A DNA stretch of 60,099 bases from Thermoplasmatales archaeon. GTDB lineage: Archaea > Thermoplasmatota > E2 > UBA202 > JdFR-43. Both the position numbers and the translations under genes were made by a program. Positions 2,835 through 23,827 of the stretch are shown piece after piece. How positions within the stretch are numbered: the first letter of the stretch is position 1; every line of letters starts with the position of its first letter. The notes under the pieces were generated by a model that made no database searches, was not told where the DNA came from, and was given only the letters and a program-made list of their open reading frames with translations. The DNA is taken from positions 70,622-130,720 of the forward strand of contig JACIWB010000001.1 of assembly GCA_014361245.1 (NCBI GenBank). The letters are read 5' to 3'.

Positions 2835-5537
2835 ATGAAAAAAGCAAAAATATTTGGGTTTGGGAATAGTGGGGTATCGGAAGTAGTTGGAACTATATTG
2901 CTTCTTGCAATCGCAATAAGCACATTCTCAGTTGTTGCAGTATATGTATTTTCAATAAATCAGCCAGAAAATACTCCAAATGTAACTCTCGTTGGATATG
3001 TAAATGAAATAGAGCATGTGGTAATAGAGCATAAGGGAGGAAAAAGCCTTGAATTGCAAAATTTGAGAATAGTTGTATGGAAAGGAGAAAAAAATAGCTC
3101 ATCATTTTCTTTTGATGAGAACGAAGAAATGGGAGAAAATGCAAAATTTTTCAAGATTAATTCAAACCATAGATGGGAAATAGGGGAATATGTTGATATA
3201 AATGCTACCGCAGTGTTTGGAAATATAACATACTGGCAGATAAGTGCAGTTATAGTTGATAAGGAAAGCAATTCAATAATTTTTTCTGGAGTACTTCAAC
3301 CAGGAGTAACAGATTATATAGTAAAGTCGGATGATGATCTGGAAAATGCCGCGGACTTTTCCTGGACGCCAAATCCAGCTTGCATCTATACTTATGTAAG
3401 ATTTATTGATCAATCAAAATATTCACAATACATAATTTCATGGAATTGGGACTTAGGAGATGGGAATACAAGTAATGAACAAAATCCAACACATACTTAT
3501 TCGAATCCATCAACATATAGAGTTACTCTGAATATAACATATCCTTCTTCAATAGTAGCTCCTGGAGTAAAAAATTGGGATACTTGTAGCAAAGATGTTT
3601 ATGTATCGGATGTTCCTATAATAAATTATAGTCCAGGAATAGCAACAACTGGCGACCCATATACTTTTTCAGTAGAGGTAATTGATTCAGATGGTGTTTC
3701 AGCAGTATATGTTGAATACTGGTTTAACGGTGGCGCGCATACAAATGGAAGTATGGAGAAAAATGGAGATGTGTGGGAATATACAATAGATGTCCCGCTA
3801 AATAGTTTAGCTCCACTTTATTATATTATTTCCGCGGAGGATACTTATCATTTCTGGAACAATACTGGAACTTTAACAACTGAAGTAAAAGATAATGACC
3901 CACCAGAAATAGTTGATTATTCTCCTTCAAGCGGAACAACAGGCGATCCATATACATTTTTAGTAAATGTTACGGACAATATAGATAGCGGAGGCAGTAT
4001 AGCAGTTTGGATAAACTGGGTTCATGGTTCAAAGGAGGGAAACAACTCCGCTAATTACATAGGCAATAACAATTACACCTTGACAATAAACTTAGACAAT
4101 AACTCAATAAATAACATGCTCTACATCATTTGTGCTATAGATTCTTCTGGAAATGCAAATTCCACAAACCAGAAGAGTGTAACAGTTTCAGATAATGACC
4201 CCCCTATAATCACAGATTACAGCTCTCAATGGGCATTCTGGAATGATGATTATATTTTTAATGCTTCGGTAGTTGATAATATAGCGGTTGCTAATGTATA
4301 TGTAACTTACTGGATAGATAATGGCTCACAAACAAATAACTCAATGAGTTTAACAGGAAACTATTACACATATACCTATCATATCACTGCAAGCGGAACT
4401 ACTTTATACTACAAATTTTCTGCAAAAGATACATCTAATAATTGGGCAGAAACAGCAATTTTCAGCAGAACATTATATTGGGGACATGTATATAATGTAG
4501 ATCAAGGCGAATGGTATAATGAAATATATGATGCAACAAAAGAGGCGAATCCAGGAGATACTATTTATGTATATCCAGGCACATATTATACACACGGAGG
4601 TGGTAATCAGGATATTGTTATAAATAAAAATGGTGTGGAACTAATAGGAGGAAGCTCACCTGATACCATAATATTGGTTAGCCAGCAGGACGGAATAACT
4701 GTTACTGCATCAAATGTTCTTATAAAAAATATTACCATGATTAAAAATTCAAATTCTCCACAAGGGAAAGAATTCAAAAAAGGAATTTATCTTAATGGAG
4801 CAAGTAATGTAACAATCGAAAATTGTAATATATCAGAAGCTGCCCAATCTGCTATTTATGTTACCGCAAGCCACGATATCCTTATAAATAACTGCACCCT
4901 ATATAAGAACTTACAGCATGGGGTTTACATAGGCGGTGGCTCATATAATGTAAATGTTTCATCTACCCACATATATCAAAATTCAGAAAATGGAATTTTA
5001 ATAGAGCAATCGAACAGCAATATTGTATATAACAACCAAATACATAATAACAGTAAAGGGGTGTATCTCTACAGAGCGCTTTATAATAACATAACTCAAA
5101 ACAATATTTACTGGAATGATATAGGAATATCCCTACAGGGAACAAATCAGGAAAAAACCAAACTAAACATTATATATTCAAATACAATTCATCACAACCA
5201 GGATGGCATCTATTTTGTAGAATACTCAACAAATAATAATATTACTTATAATACAATTCATAATAACACTCGCCTCTCTTCCATAGGATATGGAATTCGA
5301 ATAGTGTTTGCAACCAACAAAGAAAATAACCAAAATTATATTTATAAAAATAATCTAATAAACAATCAAGTAAATGGTTATGATGAATGTAACAATTACT
5401 GGGATAATGGAAGCTTTGGAAATTACTGGAGTGATTATACAGGAAGCGATGGAAATGGTGACGGAATAGGCGATACTCCTTATTCAATTCCTGGAGGAAA
5501 CAATAAAGATAATTATCCTCTCATGAATCCGATATAA
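2835..5537 (+). CDS. Giant pilin-like surface protein: archaeal class III (DUF1628-type) signal peptide, PKD domain, three Ig-like repeats, NosD-like right-handed beta-helix
   Basis: The N-terminus GNSGVSEVVGTILLLAIAISTFSVV matches the archaeal pilin N-terminal pattern (G-VSxViGxiLLvAI). A PKD motif is present (WNWDLGDGNTSNEQNPTHTYSNPSTYRVTLNI). The motif TTGDPYTF occurs in two consecutive ~100-aa modules, with a third module lacking it. Beta-helix repeats (NCxIxxN.. / NNIxxN) end in NYWSDYTGSDGNGDGIGDTPYSIPGGNNKDNYPLMNP. A GGTGG RBS precedes the ATG. Confidence 0.85.
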   Translation: MKKAKIFGFGNSGVSEVVGTILLLAIAISTFSVVAVYVFSINQPENTPNVTLVGYVNEIEHVVIEHKGGKSLELQNLRIVVWKGEKNSSSFSFDENEEMGENAKFFKINSNHRWEIGEYVDINATAVFGNITYWQISAVIVDKESNSIIFSGVLQPGVTDYIVKSDDDLENAADFSWTPNPACIYTYVRFIDQSKYSQYIISWNWDLGDGNTSNEQNPTHTYSNPSTYRVTLNITYPSSIVAPGVKNWDTCSKDVYVSDVPIINYSPGIATTGDPYTFSVEVIDSDGVSAVYVEYWFNGGAHTNGSMEKNGDVWEYTIDVPLNSLAPLYYIISAEDTYHFWNNTGTLTTEVKDNDPPEIVDYSPSSGTTGDPYTFLVNVTDNIDSGGSIAVWINWVHGSKEGNNSANYIGNNNYTLTINLDNNSINNMLYIICAIDSSGNANSTNQKSVTVSDNDPPIITDYSSQWAFWNDDYIFNASVVDNIAVANVYVTYWIDNGSQTNNSMSLTGNYYTYTYHITASGTTLYYKFSAKDTSNNWAETAIFSRTLYWGHVYNVDQGEWYNEIYDATKEANPGDTIYVYPGTYYTHGGGNQDIVINKNGVELIGGSSPDTIILVSQQDGITVTASNVLIKNITMIKNSNSPQGKEFKKGIYLNGASNVTIENCNISEAAQSAIYVTASHDILINNCTLYKNLQHGVYIGGGSYNVNVSSTHIYQNSENGILIEQSNSNIVYNNQIHNNSKGVYLYRALYNNITQNNIYWNDIGISLQGTNQEKTKLNIIYSNTIHHNQDGIYFVEYSTNNNITYNTIHNNTRLSSIGYGIRIVFATNKENNQNYIYKNNLINNQVNGYDECNNYWDNGSFGNYWSDYTGSDGNGDGIGDTPYSIPGGNNKDNYPLMNPI

Positions 5538-5538
5538 T

Positions 5539-8500
5539 ATGAGAAAGATAATAAAAAATAAATTTCTTTCATATGTTGTTACTGCGTTGTTACTGATTGT
5601 ATCATTCCCAATAATTGGGACTATATATGGAAAAGCAGGTATAATCTATGTTGGAAACGGTGGTTTCACTAGTATTCAGCAAGCAATAAATTATGCTGGG
5701 AATGGAGACACAATATTTGTTTATTCTGGAATATATTACGAAAATATTTTCATAAATAAAAATATAAAACTGCTTGGAGAAAACAAGGATGATGTAATAA
5801 TATATGGAAATGGGTTTGGGGATGTAATACATATTGAAGATTGTTCTGTGGAAATAAAAAATTTTACAATAATTAATAGTGGCGTGAATGAAGGAGATGC
5901 TGGAATAGAAATAAAATCAGCAAATAATTGTTACATTGGCGAAGTAGAGATAAAAAATAGCTATTACGGTGTTTATATAATTTCATCTGGGAATGTATTT
6001 ATTCAAAAATCCTCGATAACAAACAACTATTACGGGATATATAGTATGTTTTCTTATAATATTACTATTTCCGAAAATGAAATATTTTACAACTACAGGG
6101 ATGGAATTTACGCACAGGTTGTTGAAAATGGACAAATAATCCTTAATAAAATATCCGGCAATCTAAAAAATGGTTTATATCTAAGAGCCTCTAACAGCAT
6201 CAATATAAAAGGTAATAATATATCTTCTTCTGAAAATGGTATTTGGCTTATTTTATCAGACGAAAATAGCTTGGAGAATAATGTTATTGCAGGAAATGAT
6301 ATTGGATTGAAAATTGATGGTAGCAGTAACAACACTATATTCCTAAACAACTTTTTTTCAAATTCTATTTTCAATGCCAGAGATGATTCATCAAATTTCT
6401 ATGATAATGGAAGTGCAGGAAATTACTGGAGTGATTATACGGGAAGCGATGGAAATGGTGATGGAATAGGCGATACTCCTTATGCTATCCCGCCGGGAAA
6501 TAATAGAGATTACCACCCTCTTATGAACCCCACCATTACGGATACAATTCCTCCAAGAATTGAAAGTATTAATATCCACCCTGTGGTGCAGGAATTAAAT
6601 GGATACACCAATATAACTTCCATTGTTACAGATAATTTGGGGGTTGGGGATGTAAAGATAAATATAACTTTTCCAGATAGTACATCATTAGTTGCTGACA
6701 TGAACCAAATCTTTGGTAGTGTTTATTTTTATGTGGTTAATTGCCCTATATATGGAAATTATAGCTTTTTCATCATTGCAAATGATTTATTTAATAATAC
6801 AAACTCTTCTTTACTTTATAATTTTTCTGTTTCTCTTCCACAGGAGTTACCTAAAATATCAAATGTAAATGCCTTACCAAGCATACAGGAGTATCCAAAA
6901 ACAGTAAATATATCTTGTTATGTGAATGATAATGTAGGCGTTGGAGATGTAAAAACAATAATAAAAAGAGATGATTTTTTAGTAGGAAATTATACAATGG
7001 AAAAAATAAGCACAGATGAGAATGGAAATGGTTTATACTGCTATTATTTTACTCCTCCATACATTTCTAACTATTCCTACTACATATGGGTTGAAGACAT
7101 AAATTCAAACAAAAATAATTCATCCTATTACACTTTTTCAGTAGTTGATACAACCCCTCCTCAGATAAAAAATATTTCAATTTCTCCCGAAATAAAATTT
7201 GTAGGAGGGTATGTAAATATTTCATGCGAAATATACGATAATTATGCTGTAAATAATTCATTTGTTGAACTACATTTTCCTACTGGAGTAGTATCCAATA
7301 TATCTATGAGTAAAATAAACAACACATTTTTTATAAATCAATCTTTAGTTATAAATGGAACATATGAATTTAAAATTTTAACAAGCGATTTTTGTAATAA
7401 TTTTAACAATTCTTCAATTTATGAATTTTTTGTAACATTTCCCCCTATTGCAAACTTCACCTATGAGCCATTAAATCCAACAGATTTGGATATAATAACA
7501 TTTAATGCTTCTTCAAGCTATGATTTGGATGGCTCCATTGTTAATTATACATGGCAATTTGGAGACGGAAGCATTGCTTATGGTGAGATTGCGGAGCATA
7601 TCTATAGCAATGATGGAAATTACATAGTTAAGCTTACAGTATATGACAACGATGGAGCATACTCAAGCATTGAAAAAAATATTACTGTTTCAAATATAAT
7701 TCCCTTTGCAAATTTCACATTTCAGCCAGAAAATCCGATAGTTGGCGAGGAAGTCAGTTTTTATGATTTATCAAGCGATGCGGATGGGAGCATAAAAATA
7801 TGGGAATGGGATTTTGGGGATGGAACAAATTTATCTGGTGGAAAGGAAGAGCATAAAAATCCAAAGCATGTATATAGGAGAAATGGTATTTTCAATATAA
7901 CTCTCACTGTTTATGATGATGACTACGCAAAAAATACAACAAGCAAGCAGATAGAAGTCATAGATATATACCCTCCTTCAATAGAAAATTTATCTGTCCA
8001 TCCAAATCCTCAGGAAATAGGAAATGAAGTAAATATTTCATGTGACATTTTTGACGATGTTGAGGTCAGCGAAGCAAGAATAATCATAACCATGCCAAAT
8101 GGAAGCCAAATAAATGAAAGCATGCTACTCGCGGAAAAATATTACTACAAAATTCAGTGCAATCAGGAGGGAAATCACACCTTCTTCATTTTTGCAAAGG
8201 ACACGAGCAACAACTCCAACATCTCGCAAGCCCTTAACTTCACCATAATTGTGCCGCCTGAGCCGCCCCGCATAGAGAATGTGAGGTTGCAAAGTGTGCA
8301 GCAGTATGGCCTGCCGTTGAATATCTCATGCTATGTTTATGATAATATTGCGGTAAAGGAAACGAGGATAGTTTTTTCAGATGGCAATTTTTCAATGAGT
8401 GGAATTGTTGATGAGAAAGGAAACGGCATCTATTATTACAATTCAACATTTGATATGGGTTTGCATGCATTTTATATATATGCAGAAGATATAAATGGCT

Positions 8501-10146
8501 TCTTTAATATATCTACAAATTATTCATTTGAGATTATCGATACTCTGCTTCCGGAAATAAAAAATCTGATTTTTGAGGAAATCTGCCAGCCAGAAGAAGT
8601 TAATATATCATGCAATGTTTTTGATAATAGAGGAATAAAGGAAGTAAAGATAAATATAAGTGGAATTGAAAAAATTATGAATGGATACGGAAATCTATTT
8701 TATATAAATGAAAATCTATCAAGCGGAAACTATAGTTTTTACATAATTGCTGAAGATTTATCAAATAATAAAAATTCAACTTCCTATTACTCTTTCATTG
8801 TTACATATTTTCCAGTTGCAAATGATGATCATGCAATAACTGATGAAGACACTTCGATTTATATAGATATAACATCAAATGACTATGATATAGATGGAAG
8901 CATAAATGAAAGCAGTGTAACAATAACCCAGAATCCGTTTCATGGAAGCGTAAATGTTTATTCAAATGGAACAATTAAATATACTCCAGATGAAGATTAT
9001 TACGGCATAGATTCATTCAAATATAAGGTAAAGGATAATAGCAATGCTTGGAGCAATGAAGCATGGGTAAATATTACAATAAACAGCATAAATGATGTTC
9101 CTGTTGCAGATTTTGAATGGGAACCACTGAATCCAAAAATTAATGATACAGTCTATTTCTTTGATTTAAGTTATGATTTGGATGGCTTCATTGTTAATTA
9201 TACATGGGAATTTGGAGACGGAAACATAAGTTATGAAAAAAATTCAACTCATAGATATAATAGCGGAGGAAATTACATTGTGGTTTTAACTATAAAGGAT
9301 AATGAAGGGAAGAATTCAACAATTTCGAAAGAAATTTACATAAGTGAAGAAATTTTGATTGCAAACTTTACAATATTGAATGAAAATCCTTGTTCAAAAG
9401 AAGAAATAAGTTTTTTTGATTTATCATATGGTGCAACTTCATGGCTATGGGATTTTGGAGATGGAAGCATAAGTTATGAAAAGAATCCAAAGCATGTTTA
9501 TCAGATAGGAAGTTATTATAATGTAACCCTTACTATTTTTAATGGAAGCAGAAACGCAAGCATATCAAAAATCATACAGGTAGGAACAAAAATAGAAATA
9601 GTAAAAAACGAGAAAAATGTTGTTAATTATCTACCATGGTTTGGGAATGAAAAAAAAGCATCTGAAATTGCTGAAATTATAGGAGGTGAGATAATGCCAA
9701 ATGGAAGTGTTATAAGCAAATGGAATGTAAGCAAGGGAGCATTTGATAGCTATATAGTTGGTATATCCCCTCCTTCTTATGATTTTATGGTTTATCCCTA
9801 TGATGTAATTGTGCTGAGAGTTGCAGAAAGTGGATATTTTATAGAGGATGCATTTCCTGTAACAAGCAGAATTGTCAATGTTACAAAAAATGAAAATAAT
9901 GTGGTAAATCATTTTTCATGGAGTGCTTTTTATTCTGTAAATGCTTCTCAAATTGCTGAAATTATAGGAAGTGAGATAATGCCAGATGGAAGCGTGATAA
10001 GCAAATGGAATGTAAGCAAGGGAGCATTTGATAGCTATATAGTTGGTATATCTCCTCCTTCTTATGATTTTATGGTTTATCCTGGAGATACAATTGTTTT
10101 AAGAGTCGCAATAAGTGGTGAATTTTTGATTGAGGTGATAAAATGA
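5539..10146 (+). CDS. Giant (1535 aa) surface adhesin-like protein: signal/TM N-terminus, NosD-like beta-helix, ~8 Ig-like repeats, several PKD domains, cadherin-like module, duplicated C-terminal ~95-aa domain
   Basis: The beta-helix segment ends in NYWSDYTGSDGNGDGIGDTPYAIPPGNNRDYHPLMNP, nearly identical to the same segment in the upstream gene. PKD motifs are WQFGDGS, WDFGDGT, WEFGDGN and WDFGDGS. The cadherin-like module reads ANDDHAITDEDT..ITSNDYDIDGS. The start lies 1 nt after the upstream stop. Confidence 0.85.
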   Translation: MRKIIKNKFLSYVVTALLLIVSFPIIGTIYGKAGIIYVGNGGFTSIQQAINYAGNGDTIFVYSGIYYENIFINKNIKLLGENKDDVIIYGNGFGDVIHIEDCSVEIKNFTIINSGVNEGDAGIEIKSANNCYIGEVEIKNSYYGVYIISSGNVFIQKSSITNNYYGIYSMFSYNITISENEIFYNYRDGIYAQVVENGQIILNKISGNLKNGLYLRASNSINIKGNNISSSENGIWLILSDENSLENNVIAGNDIGLKIDGSSNNTIFLNNFFSNSIFNARDDSSNFYDNGSAGNYWSDYTGSDGNGDGIGDTPYAIPPGNNRDYHPLMNPTITDTIPPRIESINIHPVVQELNGYTNITSIVTDNLGVGDVKINITFPDSTSLVADMNQIFGSVYFYVVNCPIYGNYSFFIIANDLFNNTNSSLLYNFSVSLPQELPKISNVNALPSIQEYPKTVNISCYVNDNVGVGDVKTIIKRDDFLVGNYTMEKISTDENGNGLYCYYFTPPYISNYSYYIWVEDINSNKNNSSYYTFSVVDTTPPQIKNISISPEIKFVGGYVNISCEIYDNYAVNNSFVELHFPTGVVSNISMSKINNTFFINQSLVINGTYEFKILTSDFCNNFNNSSIYEFFVTFPPIANFTYEPLNPTDLDIITFNASSSYDLDGSIVNYTWQFGDGSIAYGEIAEHIYSNDGNYIVKLTVYDNDGAYSSIEKNITVSNIIPFANFTFQPENPIVGEEVSFYDLSSDADGSIKIWEWDFGDGTNLSGGKEEHKNPKHVYRRNGIFNITLTVYDDDYAKNTTSKQIEVIDIYPPSIENLSVHPNPQEIGNEVNISCDIFDDVEVSEARIIITMPNGSQINESMLLAEKYYYKIQCNQEGNHTFFIFAKDTSNNSNISQALNFTIIVPPEPPRIENVRLQSVQQYGLPLNISCYVYDNIAVKETRIVFSDGNFSMSGIVDEKGNGIYYYNSTFDMGLHAFYIYAEDINGFFNISTNYSFEIIDTLLPEIKNLIFEEICQPEEVNISCNVFDNRGIKEVKINISGIEKIMNGYGNLFYINENLSSGNYSFYIIAEDLSNNKNSTSYYSFIVTYFPVANDDHAITDEDTSIYIDITSNDYDIDGSINESSVTITQNPFHGSVNVYSNGTIKYTPDEDYYGIDSFKYKVKDNSNAWSNEAWVNITINSINDVPVADFEWEPLNPKINDTVYFFDLSYDLDGFIVNYTWEFGDGNISYEKNSTHRYNSGGNYIVVLTIKDNEGKNSTISKEIYISEEILIANFTILNENPCSKEEISFFDLSYGATSWLWDFGDGSISYEKNPKHVYQIGSYYNVTLTIFNGSRNASISKIIQVGTKIEIVKNEKNVVNYLPWFGNEKKASEIAEIIGGEIMPNGSVISKWNVSKGAFDSYIVGISPPSYDFMVYPYDVIVLRVAESGYFIEDAFPVTSRIVNVTKNENNVVNHFSWSAFYSVNASQIAEIIGSEIMPDGSVISKWNVSKGAFDSYIVGISPPSYDFMVYPGDTIVLRVAISGEFLIEVIK
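9592..10143 (+). repeat. Tandem in-frame duplication, period 285 bp (95 aa), at the 3' end of the 1535-aa gene
   Basis: The anchor aaattgctgaaattatagga occurs at 9665 and again at 9950. Cores of ~135 bp are nearly identical (IMPNGSVISKWNVSKGAFDSYIVGISPPSYDFMVYP in both copies). Confidence 0.9.
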
Positions 10147-12617
10147 AGAAAATAGGAAGTATAATTGTGTGTGTGTTGCTGGCGATGGCGAGCATAAGCA
10201 GCGTTGGACTGGACCAGCCATTTCCAGTGTATGGGTATATAAAGGATTCTAAGGGAAATGCTGTTTCCTGGGCACAGGTAATTGTCAGAGATATAACGAG
10301 GGGTACACAGATAATTGTGAGCACAAATGAATATGGTTTTTATCAGGCGGAGCTCAGCAGCCTGGCGGAATGCCAGAATGGAGATGTTATAGAGATATAC
10401 TGCTCTTATAACAATGAGGATAACAATAGAAGCTTTGTGCTTGATTTATCTCTTGCTTCAAAAAATGTTAGTTTCTCTCTTGTTGGCATACCATATGCAA
10501 AAACATTGAATGCAGAAAATATAACAAGTGGCTCCGCAAAATTAAATGGAGAGTTAATTTATCTAAATGATACTTCATGCCAAGTGTGGTTTGAATATGG
10601 GGAAACATTATCTTATGGATATTCGACATCAAAGATTACATATTATGGGCAAGCAAATTTTTCAGCAACAGTAAGCGGGCTTAAAGCTGATACAACCTAT
10701 CATTTTAGGGTTGTTGCCAAAAACAGCAGAAAAACATTTTATGGAAACGATGTTACATTTAGGACATCTCCATCCCTGCCAGAAGTAACAACAAATGATG
10801 CAACAGATATTTCGTATAATTCAGCGACTTTAAATGGTTATTTGAACAAGGTAGGGGCGAGCAGTTGCGAAGTATGGTTTGTTTATGATAATGCTTCACA
10901 TGATAAAATAGAGGATTACAGATATAATACTTCGCATATAATAAAGACATCTCCTTCCTCATTTTCTTCAACAATATCAAATCTTGAAGTAAATAAAACA
11001 TATTATTTCAGGGCGATTGCCAAAAATAGCGAAGGAACTGTATTTGGAGAGGAAAAAAATTTTACAACAAGGGTTATTTTGCCATCTGTTTCAACAATTT
11101 CTGCTGAAAATATAACAAGCAACTCAGCATATCTTAAAGGGGAGTTAGAGGATAGAGGGGGAGATGAATATTGCCAAATATGGTTTGAATATGGAGAAAG
11201 CACTTCCTATGGATTTGCTACAAGCATTTTATCTATAAATAAAGATGAAGAATTTTTGATTAAGGTTGAAAATTTAACTCCAGGAAAAACATATCATTTC
11301 AGGGCTGTTGCAAGAAATAGCAAAGGAACTTCTTATGGAAGTGATAAAACATTCAAGACAAATTCTACAAAAGCAAGCATTGAAACTTCAATTTCAAATT
11401 ATGCCATAATACTTACTGCAAATCTGGTTGATACAGGGGGCGAAATATGCTATGTTTGCTTTGAATATTGGAAGGAAGGAAATGAAACAATTTATAGAAC
11501 AGAAGAAAAGGCACTCAACTCACCAGGAATTTTTAATGAAACCATCTCTGGCCTGGAAAGCAACACAAGATATTATTATAGGGCTGTTGTGAGGAATAGC
11601 CAGGGCACATCCTACGGCACAAACTTGTCTTTCACAACGAGCTCGGCGCCGCCAGCGCCCTCATTGGCGGGAGAAGATGCGCTTCCTTCTTTCAATAATG
11701 CAACGTTTCAATGCAATGTTTCTCTTGGAGCAAATGATTTCTGTTATCTATGGTTTGAGGTTTGGGACGGTGAAAAAATCTCATCTGAAGTTATGATTGT
11801 TGAGGAAAATTGCTCCTTAAATTATACGATTGAAGGGCTTGAAAGTGGAAGGGAATATAATTATAGGGCTGTTGCTGTTGGTTCAAACGGTGGAATAGCA
11901 TATGGAGAAATTAAAAATTTTTTAACGCTTGAAAAAGAAAATCATCAGCCATATGTGAGTATTCTTTATCCAGAAAATAATTCGCTTGTAGATACCAACA
12001 TTTCTTTAATGGCGGAAGTATATGATGAAGACAATGATTTGCTTATCGTAAAATTCCATATAAATGATGAAATTTTTATTTTAAATTCAAGAAATGGAGT
12101 TGTGAGCATCAACTTGTCTCTTGATTACGGAAAAAATTATTCATGGTTTGTAGAAGTTAGCGATGGGAAAATAAACGCTTCCTCGCCAATCCTTGTCTTT
12201 AGAACAAAAAGCGATATTTATGCGGATTTTATAACCTCTTTCATTTTAGAAAAAGAGTTGGCTTATTTCTACGATAATTCATCTGGTGAAATAGTTTCAT
12301 GGCTATGGGATTTTGGAGATGGAAATGTGAGTTATGAAAGAAATGCAACACATGTATATGAAAAAGCAGGAGTTTATACTGTAAATCTAACAGTAAATGA
12401 TTTATATGGAAAAAGCTCATCTAAGGAAAGGGAAATAAATGTTTTTTCAAGAGGAGATGCAAACATGGATGGAAAAATAAATGCTCTTGATATAACAAAA
12501 ATAGAAAGAATAATTGCAGGAATTGATGAGGAAACAATTACGGCGGATTTGGACGGCAATGGAAAAATAAATGCGGAAGATTTAAATGAATTGATAAATA
12601 AGATACTGGGAATATGA
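10143..12617 (+). CDS. Secreted protein: CarboxypepD_reg-like domain, ~6 Fn3-like repeats, PKD domain, C-terminal dockerin
   Basis: It has a signal peptide (MKKIGSIIVCVLLAMASISS). A repeated ~95-aa unit follows the pattern ..C.VWFEYGET.SYG..T.....F...SGL...TTYHFR.VA.NS.GT.YG.D..F.T. The PKD motif is WLWDFGDGNVSY. The start overlaps the upstream stop in an ATGA. Confidence 0.85.
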   Translation: MKKIGSIIVCVLLAMASISSVGLDQPFPVYGYIKDSKGNAVSWAQVIVRDITRGTQIIVSTNEYGFYQAELSSLAECQNGDVIEIYCSYNNEDNNRSFVLDLSLASKNVSFSLVGIPYAKTLNAENITSGSAKLNGELIYLNDTSCQVWFEYGETLSYGYSTSKITYYGQANFSATVSGLKADTTYHFRVVAKNSRKTFYGNDVTFRTSPSLPEVTTNDATDISYNSATLNGYLNKVGASSCEVWFVYDNASHDKIEDYRYNTSHIIKTSPSSFSSTISNLEVNKTYYFRAIAKNSEGTVFGEEKNFTTRVILPSVSTISAENITSNSAYLKGELEDRGGDEYCQIWFEYGESTSYGFATSILSINKDEEFLIKVENLTPGKTYHFRAVARNSKGTSYGSDKTFKTNSTKASIETSISNYAIILTANLVDTGGEICYVCFEYWKEGNETIYRTEEKALNSPGIFNETISGLESNTRYYYRAVVRNSQGTSYGTNLSFTTSSAPPAPSLAGEDALPSFNNATFQCNVSLGANDFCYLWFEVWDGEKISSEVMIVEENCSLNYTIEGLESGREYNYRAVAVGSNGGIAYGEIKNFLTLEKENHQPYVSILYPENNSLVDTNISLMAEVYDEDNDLLIVKFHINDEIFILNSRNGVVSINLSLDYGKNYSWFVEVSDGKINASSPILVFRTKSDIYADFITSFILEKELAYFYDNSSGEIVSWLWDFGDGNVSYERNATHVYEKAGVYTVNLTVNDLYGKSSSKEREINVFSRGDANMDGKINALDITKIERIIAGIDEETITADLDGNGKINAEDLNELINKILGI
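12453..12614 (+). other. Dockerin module (two Ca-binding segments)
   Basis: GDANMDGKINALDITKIERIIAG and ADLDGNGKINAEDLNELINKILG fit the duplicated dockerin consensus D.N.DG.INa.D...l...i.g. Confidence 0.75.
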
Positions 12618-15568
12618 AAAAATTAGTTATTCTTGCACTGCTTTTTATTCCAATTATTGCAAGAGGAGATGTCTTTATAGATGCTCCATCAGTTGTTTTA
12701 GTTGAAAATAACTTTTACTTATATGTAAATGTTGAAAATGTTGAAATGTTTAATTCAGCAGATTATTCAATTTTTTACAATTCGTCAATTTTTGCAGTTG
12801 AAGCAGTAGAGAACGGAAATATAAATGGGAGTGAGATAAACTGCAATTATTCAATAAAGGATGGGGAATGCAAAATTGTAAGCGACGCTTCTCTTAATCC
12901 TTTAAATGGCTCTGGTTACCTATCAAAAATTAAGTTTAGATGCATTGCAAGTGGCTTATCATATATATCAATTGAAGGAAACATGAGCGATTTCTATGGA
13001 AATGAAATAAATGTTTCATGGAATGGAAAAAATATAGTTGCTACACCTACTTGCCTTAAAATAGACGCACCAGATATTGCAAGTGGATATTTTTATGCTT
13101 TTATAAATATTTCAAATGTAAGTTTTTTAAATGCAACGAATTTTGAATTGATATTCGACAAATATTTTATAGAATTCATCGAGATTGAGAACGGCTCTAT
13201 AGGAGGAGATGAAGTTTGTATCTATTTCAATGAATTTGCGGACGGAATAAAGATTGTTGCTCTTACAAATGCAAGCGGTAGCGGATGCATAGCAAAAATA
13301 AAATTTAGAGTAAAAAATTTAGGTAGCACAAATATCAATATATCAAATGCTACATTAAGCGGATTTTATGAAGAAATATCTCCATATATAATGAATAAAA
13401 CAATTTTAATCTCCTCCCGCCCGCCAGTCGCAAATGATGATTATTATACAACAAATGAAGATATTATGCTTGTTGCAATTGCTCCTGGAGTTCTTGAAAA
13501 TGATTATGATGCAGATGGAGATACCTTATCTGCAATTCTTGTTAGTGAGCCAAGCCATGGAAGCTTATCATTTAATTCAAATGGCTCATTTATCTATGCT
13601 CCTCAACCAAATTATTATGGGCAAGATAGCTTTACTTATAAAGCATATGATGGACAAGCGGATAGCAACATTGCAACAGTTTATATAAATATAACAGCGG
13701 TAAATGATGCCCCTTTTGCAGTTGATGATACAGCAAGCACAAGTGAAGATACACCTGTTTTGATAAATTTAACATCAAATGATTATGATATAGATGGAAG
13801 CATAGATTTAACAAGCATATCAATAACTCAAAATCCATCTCATGGAAGTTTAAATGTTTATTCAAATGGAACAATTAAATATACTCCAGATGAAGATTAT
13901 TATGGCTCAGATTCATTCAAATATAAAGTAAAGGATAATGATGGAGCAGAAAGCAATGAAGCATGGGTAAATATTACAATAAATCTAGTAAACCATCCGC
14001 CAAATAAACCATCTTTAGTAAGCCCAGCAAATAATTCAGCTGATGTAAGCATAAATCAAACATTAACTGTTCATGTTGTTGATGTGGATGGAAATTCAAT
14101 GAGTGTTAAATTCTATGGTCGCAAATTAGGAAACTCAACATGGCAACTGCTTGGCATAAATACAGGTGTAGGGAATAACACAGATACCTCCATAACATGG
14201 TATAATCTTGAATATGGCACAACATATGAATGGTATGCAGGTGCAAATGATAGCATCACTGAAAATTCATCAGATATATGGAGATTTACAACTCAATCAT
14301 TTCCAACCGTAAATCATGCACCAGTTGCAAATGATGATTATTATTCAACAAATGAAGATATTATGCTTGTTGTAAATGCCCCTGGAGTTCTTGGAAACGA
14401 TACCGATGCAGATGAAGATACCTTATCTGCAATTCTTGTTAGTGAACCAAGCCATGGAAGCTTAATCTTTAATTCAAATGGCTCATTTACCTATATTCCT
14501 AAATCAAATTACTATGGCTCGGATAGCTTTACTTATAAAGCATATGATGGACAAGCATATAGCAACATAGCAAAAGTTTATATTACAATAAATCCAGCAA
14601 ATGACCCTCCTCAAAAGCCAGCATCGCCAAATCCAGCAAATGGGGCAACAAATGTTGGCATAAATGCAGTTTTATCATGGCAATGCATCGATGTTGATGG
14701 AGATGCTTTTTATGATGTTTATTTTGGAACTTCATCAAATCCACCAAAAGTGGCAACTGTTACAACAAAAAGCTATAATCCAGAATTAAGTTATGAAACA
14801 ACTTATTACTGGCGAGTGGTTGCAAAAGATGGGCAATATGAGAATTCATCAGATACATGGAGTTTTACAACTATGTCATATATTCCTCCACCTCCTCCAC
14901 CAGCCAATCAGCCGCCAACATGCTCATTGAATGCAAATATTAGCCAGGGATATGCTCCTCTTCATGTTAATTTTATAATGAATGCAAGCGACGATGGAAG
15001 CATAGCAAGCTGGGAGCTTGATGTAGATAATGATGGAATTGCTGAATATAATGGCTCTGGTCCTCCTCCTTCAACAAAGCAGCATGTCTATACAACGCCT
15101 GGAAATTATACAGCAAGGCTAATAGTTAGAGATGATAAGGGGGCAAGCGATGATACAGAAATAACAATAAGGGTTTTGCAAAATCATAAGCCAGTTGTAA
15201 CAATTGTTAATCCATTTAGTGGCATTAAAATATCTGAAAATATACTGATTGAGGGATTTGCAAGCGATGAAGATGGAAATGATACAATACAAAGAGTAGA
15301 GATAAAAATTGATGGCGGGCAATGGCAGCCTGCGGAAGGCAAAAATTCATGGAGATATTTGCTTAATATAAGTGGAATAGGCGAAGGAGAGCATATAATT
15401 TATGCAAGAAGTTATGATGGAATAGATTATAGCGAGGAAAAATATATAGGAATAACTGTGGAAAAAATCAGGGAAGAGAAGAAATCCATATATCCCTACA
15501 TTTTTATTTTGGTGGCAATCGTTATTGCAATAATATTTGTAATCAGAAAATATCGTAAAGTTATTTAA
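12614..15568 (+). CDS. Membrane-anchored scaffold-like protein: signal peptide, two cohesin-like modules, four cadherin-like modules, Fn3-like and PKD-like domains, C-terminal TM helix plus basic tail
   Basis: The start overlaps the upstream stop in an ATGA. Cadherin-like motifs include VANDDYYTTNEDIM..ENDYDADGDTL and TSNDYDIDGSIDL. The C-terminus is SIYPYIFILVAIVIAIIFVIRKYRKVI. Confidence 0.85.
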   Translation: MKKLVILALLFIPIIARGDVFIDAPSVVLVENNFYLYVNVENVEMFNSADYSIFYNSSIFAVEAVENGNINGSEINCNYSIKDGECKIVSDASLNPLNGSGYLSKIKFRCIASGLSYISIEGNMSDFYGNEINVSWNGKNIVATPTCLKIDAPDIASGYFYAFINISNVSFLNATNFELIFDKYFIEFIEIENGSIGGDEVCIYFNEFADGIKIVALTNASGSGCIAKIKFRVKNLGSTNINISNATLSGFYEEISPYIMNKTILISSRPPVANDDYYTTNEDIMLVAIAPGVLENDYDADGDTLSAILVSEPSHGSLSFNSNGSFIYAPQPNYYGQDSFTYKAYDGQADSNIATVYINITAVNDAPFAVDDTASTSEDTPVLINLTSNDYDIDGSIDLTSISITQNPSHGSLNVYSNGTIKYTPDEDYYGSDSFKYKVKDNDGAESNEAWVNITINLVNHPPNKPSLVSPANNSADVSINQTLTVHVVDVDGNSMSVKFYGRKLGNSTWQLLGINTGVGNNTDTSITWYNLEYGTTYEWYAGANDSITENSSDIWRFTTQSFPTVNHAPVANDDYYSTNEDIMLVVNAPGVLGNDTDADEDTLSAILVSEPSHGSLIFNSNGSFTYIPKSNYYGSDSFTYKAYDGQAYSNIAKVYITINPANDPPQKPASPNPANGATNVGINAVLSWQCIDVDGDAFYDVYFGTSSNPPKVATVTTKSYNPELSYETTYYWRVVAKDGQYENSSDTWSFTTMSYIPPPPPPANQPPTCSLNANISQGYAPLHVNFIMNASDDGSIASWELDVDNDGIAEYNGSGPPPSTKQHVYTTPGNYTARLIVRDDKGASDDTEITIRVLQNHKPVVTIVNPFSGIKISENILIEGFASDEDGNDTIQRVEIKIDGGQWQPAEGKNSWRYLLNISGIGEGEHIIYARSYDGIDYSEEKYIGITVEKIREEKKSIYPYIFILVAIVIAIIFVIRKYRKVI
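12668..13411 (+). other. Two tandem cohesin-like modules (~125 aa each)
   Basis: DVFIDAPSVVLVENNFYLYVNVENVEMFNSADYSIFYNSSIFAVEAVENG...GYLSKIKFRCIASG and LKIDAPDIASGYFYAFINISNVSFLNATNFELIFDKYFIEFIEIENG...GCIAKIKFRVKNLG both follow the cohesin pattern (v.v.v..v..l.g.df.l.yd...l....v..G....g.la.i.F). This is pattern recognition only, with no HMM run. Confidence 0.55.
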
Positions 15569-15585
15569 TTGAGGTGATATATCAA

Positions 15586-16776
15586 ATGATGCGTGATAAG
15601 GGACAGGTTGGAATTGTTGTTGCAATATTGCTTGTTGTTTTATTAGTTTCAGTTCTTGCAGTTATACAGCTCTACTATGTGCCAAGATGGATGGAGGAAA
15701 GAGAAGCCGAGCATATGGATGTTGTTGCAAATCAATTTGCAAATTTAAAATATGCTGTTGATTTAATAGCGATGGAAAAAATTTCCTCTCCTTTAACAAC
15801 TTCGATAACGCTTGGAAGCAAGGAATTACCATATTTTCTTTCCTCCCGCTCTTTTGGCTCTATCCAGATTTTATCAAGCAGTATGAGCAATTTCGATTTT
15901 TCTTTAGAGATAGATGGATATGAATATGAAGAAAAAGAAAATGTATCATGCAGCAATACAAGCATATCAAATATAATTTCAATAAGTTCTCTTGAATTGA
16001 ATATAAATAAGCTAAATATCGGTGACTATTACAATATCTCCTTTTCAGATAACTCATCAATATCTGTAAAGGTGGATGATTTCAACGATTATTGCAGAAT
16101 TAATCTTACAGTAAAAAAAGAAAATACAACAATTTTAAATCAGACAATATTTTCAGGAATTGACAAGGGAAGCACATTTTTTATAAACTTAATGGATGAA
16201 GAATATGCATTTTCAACAAAGGTTTTACCCTATATAGCCAAGCCATTTAACGCAACATTTTCAGTTTCAAATGGTATTTTCAGTATAAGTTATGAGAGGT
16301 ATAAAGAAGCTGAAAATTGCTCTTTTTCTCTTGGAACTTTAATATATCAGGCAGACAATGCCTACTTTGTTGACCAGAATTATATATATGAAGGAGGAGC
16401 CGTTTTTTTAAGCCAGCATGATGGAAACACAACCTTATTCTCCCCATCTATTGAGGTAGCAAATTCAAGTATTAATCTCACGCTCATTAATATTACACCA
16501 GTGCCGGGCAAGGCGGGGGCGGCGGGCTATGGCACATATCTGGTGAGGGTAAATTATTCGAGTTTTGAATCCTATAGATATTTTGGAAATATAACATTAA
16601 AAATTGTGAGCAATTATAATTATTCATGGAACAGATTTTTGAATAAGACATTTAACGAAAGCGGAATTAATTATGATTACGATTGGAACTCTGGAAAGTT
16701 TGAATTGAATGAAATAGAATTTGTATTAAATGTAGTAAAAATTTACGCTCAAGTTGGGCCGGGATGGGTTGAATAA
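15586..16776 (+). CDS. Pilin-like protein with class III signal peptide (396 aa from ATG 15586; track ORF starts at GTG 15574)
   Basis: MMRDKGQVGIVVAILLVVLLVSVLAVIQLYYV is a short basic leader, a KG/Q cleavage-type motif and a hydrophobic helix. A GAGGTGA RBS lies 9 nt upstream of ATG 15586. The remainder is rich in N-x-S/T sequons. Confidence 0.75.
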   Translation: MMRDKGQVGIVVAILLVVLLVSVLAVIQLYYVPRWMEEREAEHMDVVANQFANLKYAVDLIAMEKISSPLTTSITLGSKELPYFLSSRSFGSIQILSSSMSNFDFSLEIDGYEYEEKENVSCSNTSISNIISISSLELNINKLNIGDYYNISFSDNSSISVKVDDFNDYCRINLTVKKENTTILNQTIFSGIDKGSTFFINLMDEEYAFSTKVLPYIAKPFNATFSVSNGIFSISYERYKEAENCSFSLGTLIYQADNAYFVDQNYIYEGGAVFLSQHDGNTTLFSPSIEVANSSINLTLINITPVPGKAGAAGYGTYLVRVNYSSFESYRYFGNITLKIVSNYNYSWNRFLNKTFNESGINYDYDWNSGKFELNEIEFVLNVVKIYAQVGPGWVE

Positions 16777-18663
16777 CTACTCAAAGGAAGCAAGTTTCTT
16801 TATCAATTCTTTCTTCTTTTTTCCAACAAGTGCATGCTCCAGAACTTCTTTAAGGGTTGAAACAGGTATAATTTCAATCATATCCCTATATTTATCTTCA
16901 ATTAGCACATCCTGCAGATTTGCTTTTGGTATTATAACTTTTTTAATTCCAGCCTTTGCAGCCGCTTCAATTTTTGCAGTTACCCCTCCTACAGGCAATA
17001 CTGTTCCATGAATGCTTAAGGAACCAGTCATTGCAACCTGCTGGCTTACAGGAACTCTTTCCATTGCAGAAATAACAGCCGTAGCAACTGATATTGAAGC
17101 GGAATCTCCTTCCACACCTTCATATGTTCCTATAAATTGGATATGAATATCTTTTTTCGATATATCCTCACCAATATATTTCTTTATTATTGCAGAAACA
17201 TTCTGGACTGCTTCTCTTGCTATTATCCCAAGTTTGCCGGTAGCAACTACTTTTCCTTCAGCCTGCGAGCCAGCTGGGGTAACTTCTGCAGCTATAGGAA
17301 GAATCAAGCCAGAGTATTCACTCATCGACGGATCAGCAGACATTACAGCCAGCCCATTGACTATGCCAATTTTTGCTCCATCTGTCTCAAAATATTTGTA
17401 TGCTTTCTTCTTCTCTATATATCTGTCCGCAACCTGTTGCTCAAGACTTCTTGCAATTTCCTTTGCCTTGATTACATGCTCCTGAGTAACAATATTTTTT
17501 CCTTCTTTTATTGCAATGTCGCCCGCAACTCTTATAAGCCCTCCTAGCTCACGAAGCCTTAATGAGAGCTTTCCCTTTTGCCCAGCCCTTCTTTGTGCCT
17601 CTCTTATTATCTCTGCAACCGCCTTCTTGTCAAAATGAGGAATTTTACCATCCTTTGCTACTTCCTGCGCAACAAATCTTATAAGTTTTTCTCTATTCTC
17701 TTCATTATCATCCATCACATTATTCATATAAACTTCGTATCCATATCCCCTTATCCTGCTCCTTAAAGCGGGATGCATACCCGCAACTGCATCAAGATTT
17801 CCAGCACAAACCAGAATGAAATCACAGGGAACCGGCTCAGTTTTAACCATTGCTCCAGCACTCCTTTCAGACTGGCCAGTTATAGAAAACTTCTTCTCCT
17901 GGATTGCGGTAAGCAAATGCTGCTGTGATTGCAAGCTCAATGTATTTATCTCATCAATATAAAGCACTCCTTTATGTGCCCTGTGAATTGCTCCCGCCTC
18001 TACCCTCAAGTGAGGAGGTGTTTCAAGCCCCCCTGCCTGAAAAGGGTCGTGGCGCACATCACCGAGCAGGGCGCCGGAATGGGCGGCGGTTGCATCAATG
18101 AATGGGGGGGTGTCATCTTTTGTATGAGAGACGAGTATTTTTGGTATGTTTGCCTCCTCTCTTCGCTGAATAATGCTTCCTCTGCCAGCTATTAGATAAA
18201 TCATTGCAGCTGCTATCAGCCCGAAAAAGGCAAGGGTTATGTCATAATATATCGCCCCGAATATTGAGAGAATGATTATGAATGATACAATAAGGTTAAC
18301 AAACTGGCTCTGCTGTTGCTCTCTCCTCCTCGCCTCAATCTTCATTTTTTCTACAATTTCCTTCCCTTTTTCAGCAGGGACAACTCTTATAAGAGGAGTG
18401 TTTGCATCGTCTTTATTTGGATATACCAGTATATCCTCAAGCTCTTCTTTTGGCAAAAATTCGGTCATTGCCCTCGCCAGCATTGATTTGCCAGTGCCAG
18501 GCTCGCCTATGAGCATCACATGCCTTTTCTGTCTTGCTGCCTGTCTTACAACTTCTACTACATGATCCTGCCCTATTACCTGGTCTATAAGCAATTTCGG
18601 AATACTTATTTCTGCTGTTGTGTTAAAATTTTTTGTTTCTATCCATTCATCTATTTGCAACAT
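16777..18663 (-). CDS. lonB: Archaeal membrane-bound Lon protease (LonB)
   Basis: It has a Walker A (GEPGTGKS), a TM insertion inside the AAA+ module ([38 protein letters not shown]) and a C-terminal Lon proteolytic domain ([15 protein letters not shown]...[26 protein letters not shown]). Confidence 0.95.
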
Positions 18664-22788: not shown

Positions 22789-22949
22789 AAAAGCTTGATG
22801 AGATAATAGAAGAACTTGAAAAAGGAGAGCTACCTCTTGAAGAAACAATATCAAAATTTGAAGAAGGGATAAAGCTCTGCAAGTTATGCAGGGAAAAAAT
22901 TCAGATGGCGGAAATGAAAATAGAAAAACTTATGGAAGACATAAAATGA
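22743..22949 (+). CDS. xseB: Exodeoxyribonuclease VII small subunit
   Basis: FEEALKKLDEIIEELEKGELPLEETISKFEEGIKLCKLCREKI fits the XseB helical hairpin consensus. The gene overlaps the xseA 3' end. Confidence 0.8.
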   Translation: MHCEGEKEIGFEEALKKLDEIIEELEKGELPLEETISKFEEGIKLCKLCREKIQMAEMKIEKLMEDIK

Positions 22950-23827
22950 GACAATCTCTATTTTTTATTCCTCCAACAATTGCAATAATTTTAGGCCATT
23001 TTCTGGTAATTAATGAAAGCATTGAAAAAATAAACATAGCTACTACTCCTTTCCTTTTCCTTTCATTGTTTATAATAGGAGCTGGATATTTTATTAAAGA
23101 GAAAACAAAACATGTGATGCTATGCTATGGATGGATGCTTTTCGCAATTTACTGGGCAACACAGCCAGAAATTTTATACTATAAAGGGGAAGGAGATATA
23201 GTAAATGCTCTTTTCTGCATCGCCGGTGTATATTTTCTTTCCTATATCTCTTACCATGAATGGCTTTCCTACAAAAAGGAGGAAAATTTAGCAAGCTTAA
23301 ACTTTCTCGCGGGCGCCACCTTTGTTGCTGGCTTGCTATATTTTATTTTTGAAAAAGTGGATTTTTTGGCTGGCTTACTTATAAAGATTGTTGCGGAGCA
23401 AACTGCTTCGATAATGAATTTTTTTGGATATAATGTTACTACTGGAAATGTAATATATGGGATAAATACTGTTGTTCCAATATATTTCAACGGGCATGAA
23501 AGCGTGCAACTTATTCTTGCATGCACTGGGTTGCAATCAATGGCTGTTTTTGTTGGTGTTTTTGGAGCGGTTAATTCCGATTATATAAAAAGGATTAAGG
23601 GTCTTTTAATAACTGTTATAACAATATATATTCTAAACCTGATCAGAAATGCTGGCGTGATATATGGAATGGAAATTCTTGGTATTGACTTTTACATAAT
23701 GCACAATGTAATCGGAAAAATTGGCTCATTAATTGCTCTTATAGTGCTTGCATTCATAACTTTTGAAATGGTTCCAGAAATATATAATAATATATCTGCT
23801 TTATTTGATTTGACAAAGAGAAAATGA
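22946..23827 (+). CDS. Archaeosortase/exosortase-family transpeptidase (polytopic membrane protein)
   Basis: The conserved Cys/Arg/His signature is visible: LILACTGLQSM, LNLIRNAG, IMHNVIGK. About 8 TM segments are present. Start chosen at ATG 22946 (MRQSLFF), which forms an ATGA overlap with the xseB stop. Confidence 0.8.
   Translation: MRQSLFFIPPTIAIILGHFLVINESIEKINIATTPFLFLSLFIIGAGYFIKEKTKHVMLCYGWMLFAIYWATQPEILYYKGEGDIVNALFCIAGVYFLSYISYHEWLSYKKEENLASLNFLAGATFVAGLLYFIFEKVDFLAGLLIKIVAEQTASIMNFFGYNVTTGNVIYGINTVVPIYFNGHESVQLILACTGLQSMAVFVGVFGAVNSDYIKRIKGLLITVITIYILNLIRNAGVIYGMEILGIDFYIMHNVIGKIGSLIALIVLAFITFEMVPEIYNNISALFDLTKRK

Follow-up and report, generated by a model that had tools for sequence, protein, structure and literature searches.

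An order-wide conserved pair of overlapping dockerin and cohesin genes, a candidate non-cellulosomal surface tether in uncultured Thermoplasmatota

Introduction

Binding between cohesins and dockerins has been demonstrated for the archaeon Archaeoglobus fulgidus (Bayer 1999 and Haimovitz 2008, both as cited in PMC9012536), and many proteins with dockerins or cohesins have been described in anaerobic methanotrophic (ANME) archaea, where they were proposed to act in surface display and cell-cell contact (Chadwick et al. 2022, PMC9012536). Most archaeal cohesins and dockerins are without an assigned partner. In this study, we analyzed a 60,099-nucleotide stretch of DNA (hereafter, the window) from a Thermoplasmatales archaeon (assembly GCA_014361245.1, contig JACIWB010000001.1, C1:70622-130720, forward strand), in which the third gene of a five-gene operon encodes a secreted protein with a dockerin and the fourth gene, overlapping the third, encodes a membrane protein with two cohesins. 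The dockerin thus has an adjacent candidate receptor, and arrangements of this kind, falling into four classes, are found in dozens of genomes. On the strength of the sequence and its comparison with relatives, we consider it likely that the two genes specify a cognate, non-cellulosomal cohesin-dockerin pair, which would tether a protein with Fn3 and PKD modules to a membrane stalk in a non-covalent, Ca2+-dependent manner.

Tethering of surface proteins by non-cellulosomal cohesin-dockerin pairs has already been published for archaea, and the advance made here is therefore incremental. What is new is the lineage, the finding that a translationally coupled pair in a pilin-flanked operon is conserved throughout the order, the occurrence together of four pairs with matching classes, and the presence of cohesins that public annotation has missed. 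In our searches of the literature, no paper connected cohesin-dockerin pairs with Thermoplasmatota or MBG-D.

Results

The third gene of the operon (10143..12617, plus strand) encodes an 824-aa protein that begins with a signal peptide of Sec type as judged by inspection (MKKIGSIIVCVLLAMASISSVG), continues with Fn3-like repeats and a PKD module (aa 710-765), and ends in a dockerin (aa 771-824; 12453..12614, plus strand). The protein has no transmembrane (TM) helix and no pilin leader. The dockerin follows directly after the PKD module and consists of two F-hand segments, DANMDGKINALDITKIERIIAG and DLDGNGKINAEDLNELINKILG, separated by an 8-aa linker. The Pfam model Dockerin_1 (PF00404) matched aa 771-822 over positions 2-57 of its 57 positions with 39.0 bits (cut-off, 22.9 bits; E = 9e-10), and a six-frame scan of the genome recovered the same dockerin with 45.3 bits (E = 1.6e-11). 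Both 12-residue Ca loops, DANMDGKINALD and DLDGNGKINAED, have aspartate or asparagine at positions 1, 3, 5, 9, and 12. An AlphaFold2 (AF2) model of aa 690-824 placed one helix after each loop, at model residues 92-103 and 122-133, albeit with low confidence, and the loop-helix pattern is kept in 25 orthologues. The two segments have a KINAxD core in common and are identical at 9 of 22 positions (by inspection), which makes a dual binding mode of this dockerin possible.

The fourth gene (12614..15568, plus strand) encodes a 984-aa protein with an 18-aa signal peptide, two cohesins, a middle part of about 690 aa of Ig-like repeats (three Big_9/cadherin-like, or tandem-95, repeats followed by Fn3-like, PKD, and Big_7 modules), and a C-terminal TM helix (aa 960-977, YPYIFILVAIVIAIIFVI) with the basic cytoplasmic tail RKYRKVI (helix and tail, 15491..15565, plus strand). 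The protein has the topology of a type I membrane protein, with both cohesins on the N-terminal side. Among the orthologues P0006-P0014, the ends are the same and the middle varies, and P0008 and P0010-P0014 likewise have a TM helix followed by an R/K tail. Cohesin module 1 spans aa 19-145 (127 aa; 12668..13048, plus strand) and module 2 spans aa 146-270 (125 aa; 13049..13423, plus strand). When we scanned the N-terminal 278 aa alone, the cohesin model PF00963 matched in two stretches with a total of 42.1 bits (E = 1.2e-10), and the scan of the genome gave 24.6 and 21.6 bits for the two modules and 42.3 bits combined. The cohesins of this genus escape full-length Pfam scans and precomputed annotation alike, and the closest homologues P0006-P0008 go by the names "tandem-95 repeat protein" and "Ig-like domain-containing protein." In the more distant orthologues P0009-P0014, PF00963 is annotated.

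A search of the two-cohesin region against the sequences in the PDB with phmmer returned nothing relevant, and a comparison at the level of the fold was therefore required. The AF2 model of aa 19-270, built from an alignment of 7 sequences, contained two all-beta modules and had a mean predicted local distance difference test (pLDDT) score of 94.3 and a predicted TM-score (pTM) of 0.81; module 1 had a pLDDT above 90. In a Foldseek search of the two-module model against the PDB, the type II cohesin dyad 3l8q ranked first (E = 7e-13). The best matches to single domains were true cohesins with TM-scores of 0.71-0.77, including 2xdh from A. fulgidus (0.77; root mean square deviation of 2.7 Å at 19% identity), 5nrm (0.75), and 6kge and 2jh2 (0.72 each). 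The modules thus resemble the nine-stranded beta-sandwich of solved cohesins by both AF2 and Foldseek.

The two genes are in different reading frames and overlap by a stop/start ATGA at 12614..12617 (plus strand), where the junction reads ...GGA ATA TGA and the ATG occupies 12614-12616. This overlap indicates translational coupling of the dockerin and cohesin genes. An earlier note on the window, made from its letters alone, had read the same ATGA overlap, a duplicated dockerin at the end of the 824-aa protein, two cohesin-like modules behind the signal peptide of the 984-aa protein, and a TM helix with a basic tail at its other end. Each of these features was recovered: both module types exceeded the curated cut-offs of their Pfam models, the dockerin has two canonical Ca loops, and the modules that the note had placed at 12668-13411 passed the profile search of the N-terminus alone and the structural comparison.

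The window belongs to a 1.48-Mb assembly that is 99% complete and has a G+C content of about 33%. Its DNA is archaeal, with genes for LonB, archaeosortase A, and an archaeal type IV pilin N-terminal domain. Near-identical sequence is present in four runs of an "oil production facility metagenome," and contigs from these four runs of the source study cover 11360-13484 with 0 differences. Because these contigs are identical and the arrangement is syntenic in relatives, we regard the junction between the dockerin and cohesin genes as real and not as an assembly artefact or chimera. Elsewhere in the operon, each of the four runs had a contig word depth several-fold higher than in the flanks at 7036-7602, 8737-9303, and 13840-14406, and these are also sites of contig breaks. 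Cassettes of tandem-95/cadherin and PKD modules recur both inside single genes and among different genes of the community, which accounts for the fragmented assembly of these surface genes.

We then analyzed the presence of both module types in 41 genomes of the same order and found cohesins in at least 37 and dockerins in 36 of them. At least 48 of the 120 dockerin matches, from at least 30 of the 41 genomes, had a cohesin on the same strand no more than 700 nt downstream. The distance was mostly 63-250 nt, a spacing that puts the cohesin right after the signal peptide of the next gene. The dockerin proteins carry a signal peptide and lack an anchor, and the cohesin proteins terminate in a TM helix. 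The 43 pairs that we extracted fall into four dockerin classes: class A, to which the window dockerin belongs (RGDANMDG...INKILG), class B (PWDVN...HWMQTP...W...HWTG), class C (EDFNGDG...SPDW...KWTG), and class D (NGDVSGNG). For 41 of 42 cohesins, the nearest cohesin neighbour came from the same dockerin class, and class A cohesins scored at least 47 bits among themselves and no more than 43 bits against the other classes.

Class A comprises 25 pairs, 19 of which have the ATGA overlap, with the remaining genes spaced by -10 to +4 nt. Behind the signal peptide, each of the 21 class A partners for which at least 290 aa were retrieved contains exactly two cohesins. Of 39 genomes of the order, 31 have a single copy of this class A two-cohesin region, and none of 158 other genomes of the taxonomic class contains it. 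Full-length relatives of the dockerin protein were found only in metagenome-assembled genomes titled Thermoplasmatota, Thermoplasmata, or Thermoplasmatales archaeon. A mirror-tree or covariation analysis of the pairs was dropped because adjacent, co-inherited genes correlate without binding.

Relatives also contain seven direct fusions of the two modules (G017: C18, C20, C48, C56, and C176; G024: C43 and C57; G026: C32), in which a cohesin is followed in the same frame by a dockerin 10-16 nt on, leaving a linker of about 5 aa. Such units could assemble into head-to-tail chains. The genome of the window has no fused unit.

In the genome of the window, five dockerins exceed the cut-off, and seven to nine cohesin modules are present. 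The order dockerin-then-cohesin occurs at three further places, on contigs C95, C41, and C50. On C95, a gene for a 1238-aa dockerin protein overlaps one for a 779-aa cohesin protein (class B); on C41, a 1236-aa dockerin protein is followed by a cohesin protein cut by the contig end (class B); and on C50, a truncated dockerin protein is followed by a 1129-aa protein with two cohesins and then by a 761-aa protein with one (class C). The window pair represents class A in this genome. The self-contained pair of the earlier note is thus real but not unique, as at least three further dockerin-then-cohesin pairs of other classes accompany it. Both full-length cohesin proteins encoded directly after a dockerin gene, on C95 and C50, end in a TM helix, and the 761-aa protein has no C-terminal TM helix.

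According to Pfam, the cargos of the C95 and C47 dockerins are an FG-GAP propeller with DUF11, and cadherin-like/PKD repeats. No catalytic domain of a glycoside hydrolase (GH), polysaccharide lyase (PL), carbohydrate esterase (CE), or peptidase was found on any dockerin protein of the genome scanned with Pfam, a set that left out the truncated C50 protein, the C41 near-duplicate, and a weak candidate at C95:34288.

Two further observations concern class B cohesin genes of this genome. The cohesin protein at C95:19679-22018 (L124:7679-10018) has a Cys-rich cytoplasmic tail beyond its TM helix that matched Prok-RING_1 (PF14446) just under the cut-off (27.9 bits, E = 2.3e-6), and this RING-like tail possibly links surface docking with the cytoplasm. 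A truncated cohesin gene at the start of C41 (minus strand) and a gene ending in a dockerin at the start of C47 share an exact overlap of 125 nt. If the two contigs do join there, the product is possibly an adaptor of about 950 aa that has a cohesin at its N-terminus and a dockerin at its C-terminus. These 125 nt recur at an end of C94 and are a repeat cassette that the gene of the 984-aa protein also contains, which leaves the join ambiguous.

The operon consists of five plus-strand genes from 2835 to 16776, separated by overlaps or gaps of 1-5 nt. Gene 1 (2835..5537, plus strand) encodes a 900-aa protein with an archaeal type IV pilin N-terminus (Pilin_N, 57 bits), a PKD module, and a right-handed beta-helix that is NosD-like (Beta_helix, 106 bits; NosD, 72 bits). 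Gene 2 (5539..10146, plus strand) begins 1 nt past gene 1, overlaps the start of gene 3 with its end, and encodes, according to Pfam, a secreted 1535-aa protein with a NosD-like beta-helix, four PKD modules, a Big_9/cadherin-like repeat, and a duplicated C-terminal domain. Neither the Pfam search nor the genome scan found a dockerin in the proteins of genes 1 and 2, which agrees with the earlier view that the other members of the operon are free of dockerins. Gene 5 (15574..16776, plus strand) encodes a 400-aa DUF7289 protein (Pfam, 34.2 bits) with a pilin-like hydrophobic N-terminus. It is followed by the convergent gene lonB (16777-18663, minus strand), as is also the case in L045, L168, and L171. 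The whole five-gene operon is kept in another family of the order (f2, L168), with genes 1 and 5 at the same positions, and a four-gene form occurs in L045; gene 2 is conserved in both. N-X-S/T sequons are 1.4- to 3.1-fold more frequent than expected from composition in all five operon proteins, the 1535-aa protein having 68 sequons where 25 were expected. This enrichment fits with glycosylated proteins exposed at the cell surface.

An open reading frame (ORF) for archaeosortase A (ArtA; TIGR04125, 151 bits) lies 7 kb downstream, at 22886-23827, and we considered the 984-aa protein as a substrate of this enzyme. This candidate was rejected: the protein gave no PGF-CTERM match in NCBIfam, the motif preceding its TM helix is YPY, its orthologues have FPLW or FSVW at this place and not a conserved motif, and the paralogous cohesin proteins have long cytoplasmic tails. 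The cohesin scaffold is probably not an ArtA substrate. Further along the window, an ORF at 41317-42900 resembles ISH3-family transposases (NF033541, E = 7.7e-48, below the cut-off).

Discussion

The analysis of the operon and its relatives suggests how the two proteins might work together. The 824-aa protein would be exported via its Sec signal peptide and, having no anchor of its own, would be retained by its dockerin, whose two EF-hand-like Ca loops, each with its helix, would plug into one or the other of the two cohesins that the 984-aa protein displays away from the membrane. This second protein would be held in the cytoplasmic membrane by its single C-terminal TM helix and would carry its cohesins on a stalk, about 690 aa long, made of cadherin-like, Fn3, PKD, and Big_7 modules. 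The gene overlap might favour co-synthesis of cargo and anchor. The product would be a non-covalent, Y-shaped surface fibre with up to two Fn3/PKD chains per anchor, and, alongside the pilin-like beta-helix proteins of the operon, it may contribute to the glycosylated coat of the cell or to an adhesive layer. We infer the physical binding, its dependence on Ca2+, and the 2:1 stoichiometry from the established behaviour of cohesin-dockerin pairs, those of archaea among them (PMC9012536 and references cited there); the role in adhesion or the cell coat is a further proposal. The earlier note had likewise proposed a membrane-anchored scaffold docking its upstream neighbour, and the comparative data, in particular the order-wide coupled pair and the separate cohesin class for each dockerin class, strongly favour this neighbour as the partner.

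Several findings weigh against this reading. The concordance of classes is supportive and not decisive because co-inherited adjacent genes would match regardless of binding. Two runs labelled metatranscriptomic contain the locus, with a contig depth as flat as that of the DNA runs, also over lonB on the opposite strand; owing to this DNA-like coverage, we make no claim of transcription from these runs. The genome has at least five dockerins and 7-9 cohesin modules that are not all paired. The cohesin protein at C50:4507-6792 (cohesin at C50:4591) has no dockerin gene of its own directly upstream, weak cohesin matches on C17 and C20 also lack an adjacent dockerin, and the gene that follows the C47 dockerin gene has no detectable cohesin. 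Cross-pairing is therefore possible, and the modules could be genuine with partners that are not, or not only, their neighbours: the dockerin could bind other or orphan cohesins, or the two cohesins could gather several dockerin proteins in a promiscuous network, with the possible C41/C47 adaptor hinting at chains. We nevertheless judge such cross-pairing to be improbable, as the classes of dockerins and of cohesins differ sharply and are strictly found side by side, and class A is single-copy and always occurs as one and the same translationally coupled two-gene unit. The systems characterised so far mostly show separate specificities for divergent classes, as is established for cellulosomes (for example, Haimovitz 2008, as cited in PMC9012536).

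A further group of findings concerns the modules themselves. The PF00963 cohesin was not listed in the Pfam scan of the full-length 984-aa protein, and the single modules barely exceeded the cut-off of 24.1 bits, with 27.5 bits for module 1 and 24.9 bits for module 2. The Foldseek matches also included many unrelated proteins with tandem beta-sandwiches, integrins and Cna/AgI-II adhesins among them. In the AF2 model of aa 690-824, built without Ca2+ from a shallow alignment of 5 sequences, the PKD module was confident, but the dockerin fold was not, with block-mean pLDDT values of 41-62 from model residue 81 onwards. The two kinds of module might thus not interact, the supposed cohesins being generic Ig-like or carbohydrate-binding sandwiches on the tip of an adhesin and the supposed dockerin a Ca-binding tail that stabilises the protein or binds a ligand. 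We give this explanation very little weight, because both modules pass curated Pfam cut-offs and true cohesins are the best structural matches to single domains, and because neither the position of so many dockerins directly before a cohesin nor the assignment of each of the four dockerin classes to its own cohesin class can be put down to chance.

Least plausible of all is a cellulosome-like degradative machine, in which the proteins with a beta-helix, from genes 1 and 2, would act as polysaccharide lyases or hydrolases, with the pair organising the binding of substrate near them: both proteins do have a right-handed beta-helix/NosD domain, gene 1 has a weak match to CBM_56 (E = 0.0012, below the cut-off), and an L168 orthologue has a sub-significant ChitinaseA_N-like Ig match, but the idea is weakened because these proteins have no dockerin, one of them carrying a pilin leader instead, the window dockerin is attached to nothing but Fn3/PKD modules, and no family of carbohydrate-active enzymes (CAZymes) or peptidases was found on the scanned dockerin proteins. 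The right-handed beta-helix fold is common to pectate lyases and GH28 enzymes. Because of this shared fold, the earlier statement that no carbohydrate-active domain is recognisable anywhere in the operon is not strictly shown. The preference of the same note for adhesion or surface assembly over a cellulosome is supported, and the lack of GH or other catalytic domains on these dockerin proteins makes such a non-cellulosomal role the better reading.

If the two proteins are indeed a cognate pair, the four classes would provide a set of natural binding pairs, probably orthogonal to each other, for studies of specificity, and the pairs might serve as affinity parts that work in low-G+C anaerobes. 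The pairs also point to a way of surface construction in an uncultured lineage of Thermoplasmatota found in oil, sediment, and hot spring habitats, and they expose an annotation gap, since the scaffold is publicly known just as a "tandem-95 repeat" or "Ig-like domain-containing" protein. A bolder idea, which we hold to be rather unlikely though worth stating, is that the operon builds a single, undescribed surface structure specific to the order and that the four orthogonal classes act as a "plug-board" by which most of the cell coat is assembled non-covalently, possibly in place of a conventional S-layer.

Two of the closest known counterparts are archaeal. A. fulgidus is, like the organism studied here, a non-cellulolytic archaeon with a type I-like dockerin that has two Ca loops, and its cohesin 2xdh is the closest match to a single domain of our model apart from bacterial ones. 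One A. fulgidus protein has both a cohesin and a dockerin. The locus described here differs from A. fulgidus in having the pair cleanly divided between two overlapping genes, one for a secreted cargo and one for a stalk with two cohesins and a TM anchor, in the five-gene, pilin-flanked operon conserved across an order of Thermoplasmatota, and in the coexistence of four classes. ANME archaea are also uncultured anaerobes whose dockerin and cohesin proteins have no cellulolytic role. Their common dockerin cargos are substrate-binding proteins of ABC transporters, and their scaffolds have up to five cohesins together with a dockerin (PMC9012536), whereas the cargos found here are structural only (Fn3/PKD modules, an FG-GAP propeller, and cadherin-like repeats) and the scaffolds combine one or two cohesins with a TM anchor, the gene pairs being adjacent and class-matched.

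Among bacterial systems, the anchoring scaffoldins (Acetivibrio cellulolyticus ScaA, 3l8q; Clostridium thermocellum, 4fl4) likewise use tandem cohesins to hold dockerin partners at the cell surface. Unlike these, the Thermoplasmatota system has no enzymes and no carbohydrate-binding module (CBM), and it uses a C-terminal TM helix instead of an S-layer homology (SLH) or sortase anchor. In terms of what defines a cellulosome, we found no dockerin-bearing CAZyme among the scanned proteins, and the scaffold contains neither a CBM nor an SLH domain. Also in contrast to bacterial cellulosomes, there is no X-module and the PKD module abuts the dockerin, and the DSSP string of the AF2 model is without the kind of helix seen in type II cohesins. 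The GH84 toxin complexes of Clostridium perfringens (2jh2 and 2w1n; TM-score of 0.72) are similar to the pair described here in that single, non-cellulosomal cohesin-dockerin pairs join large secreted proteins. The proteins joined in C. perfringens are glycoside hydrolases and toxins, while the pair in Thermoplasmatota would connect its cargo to a membrane-anchored structural stalk.

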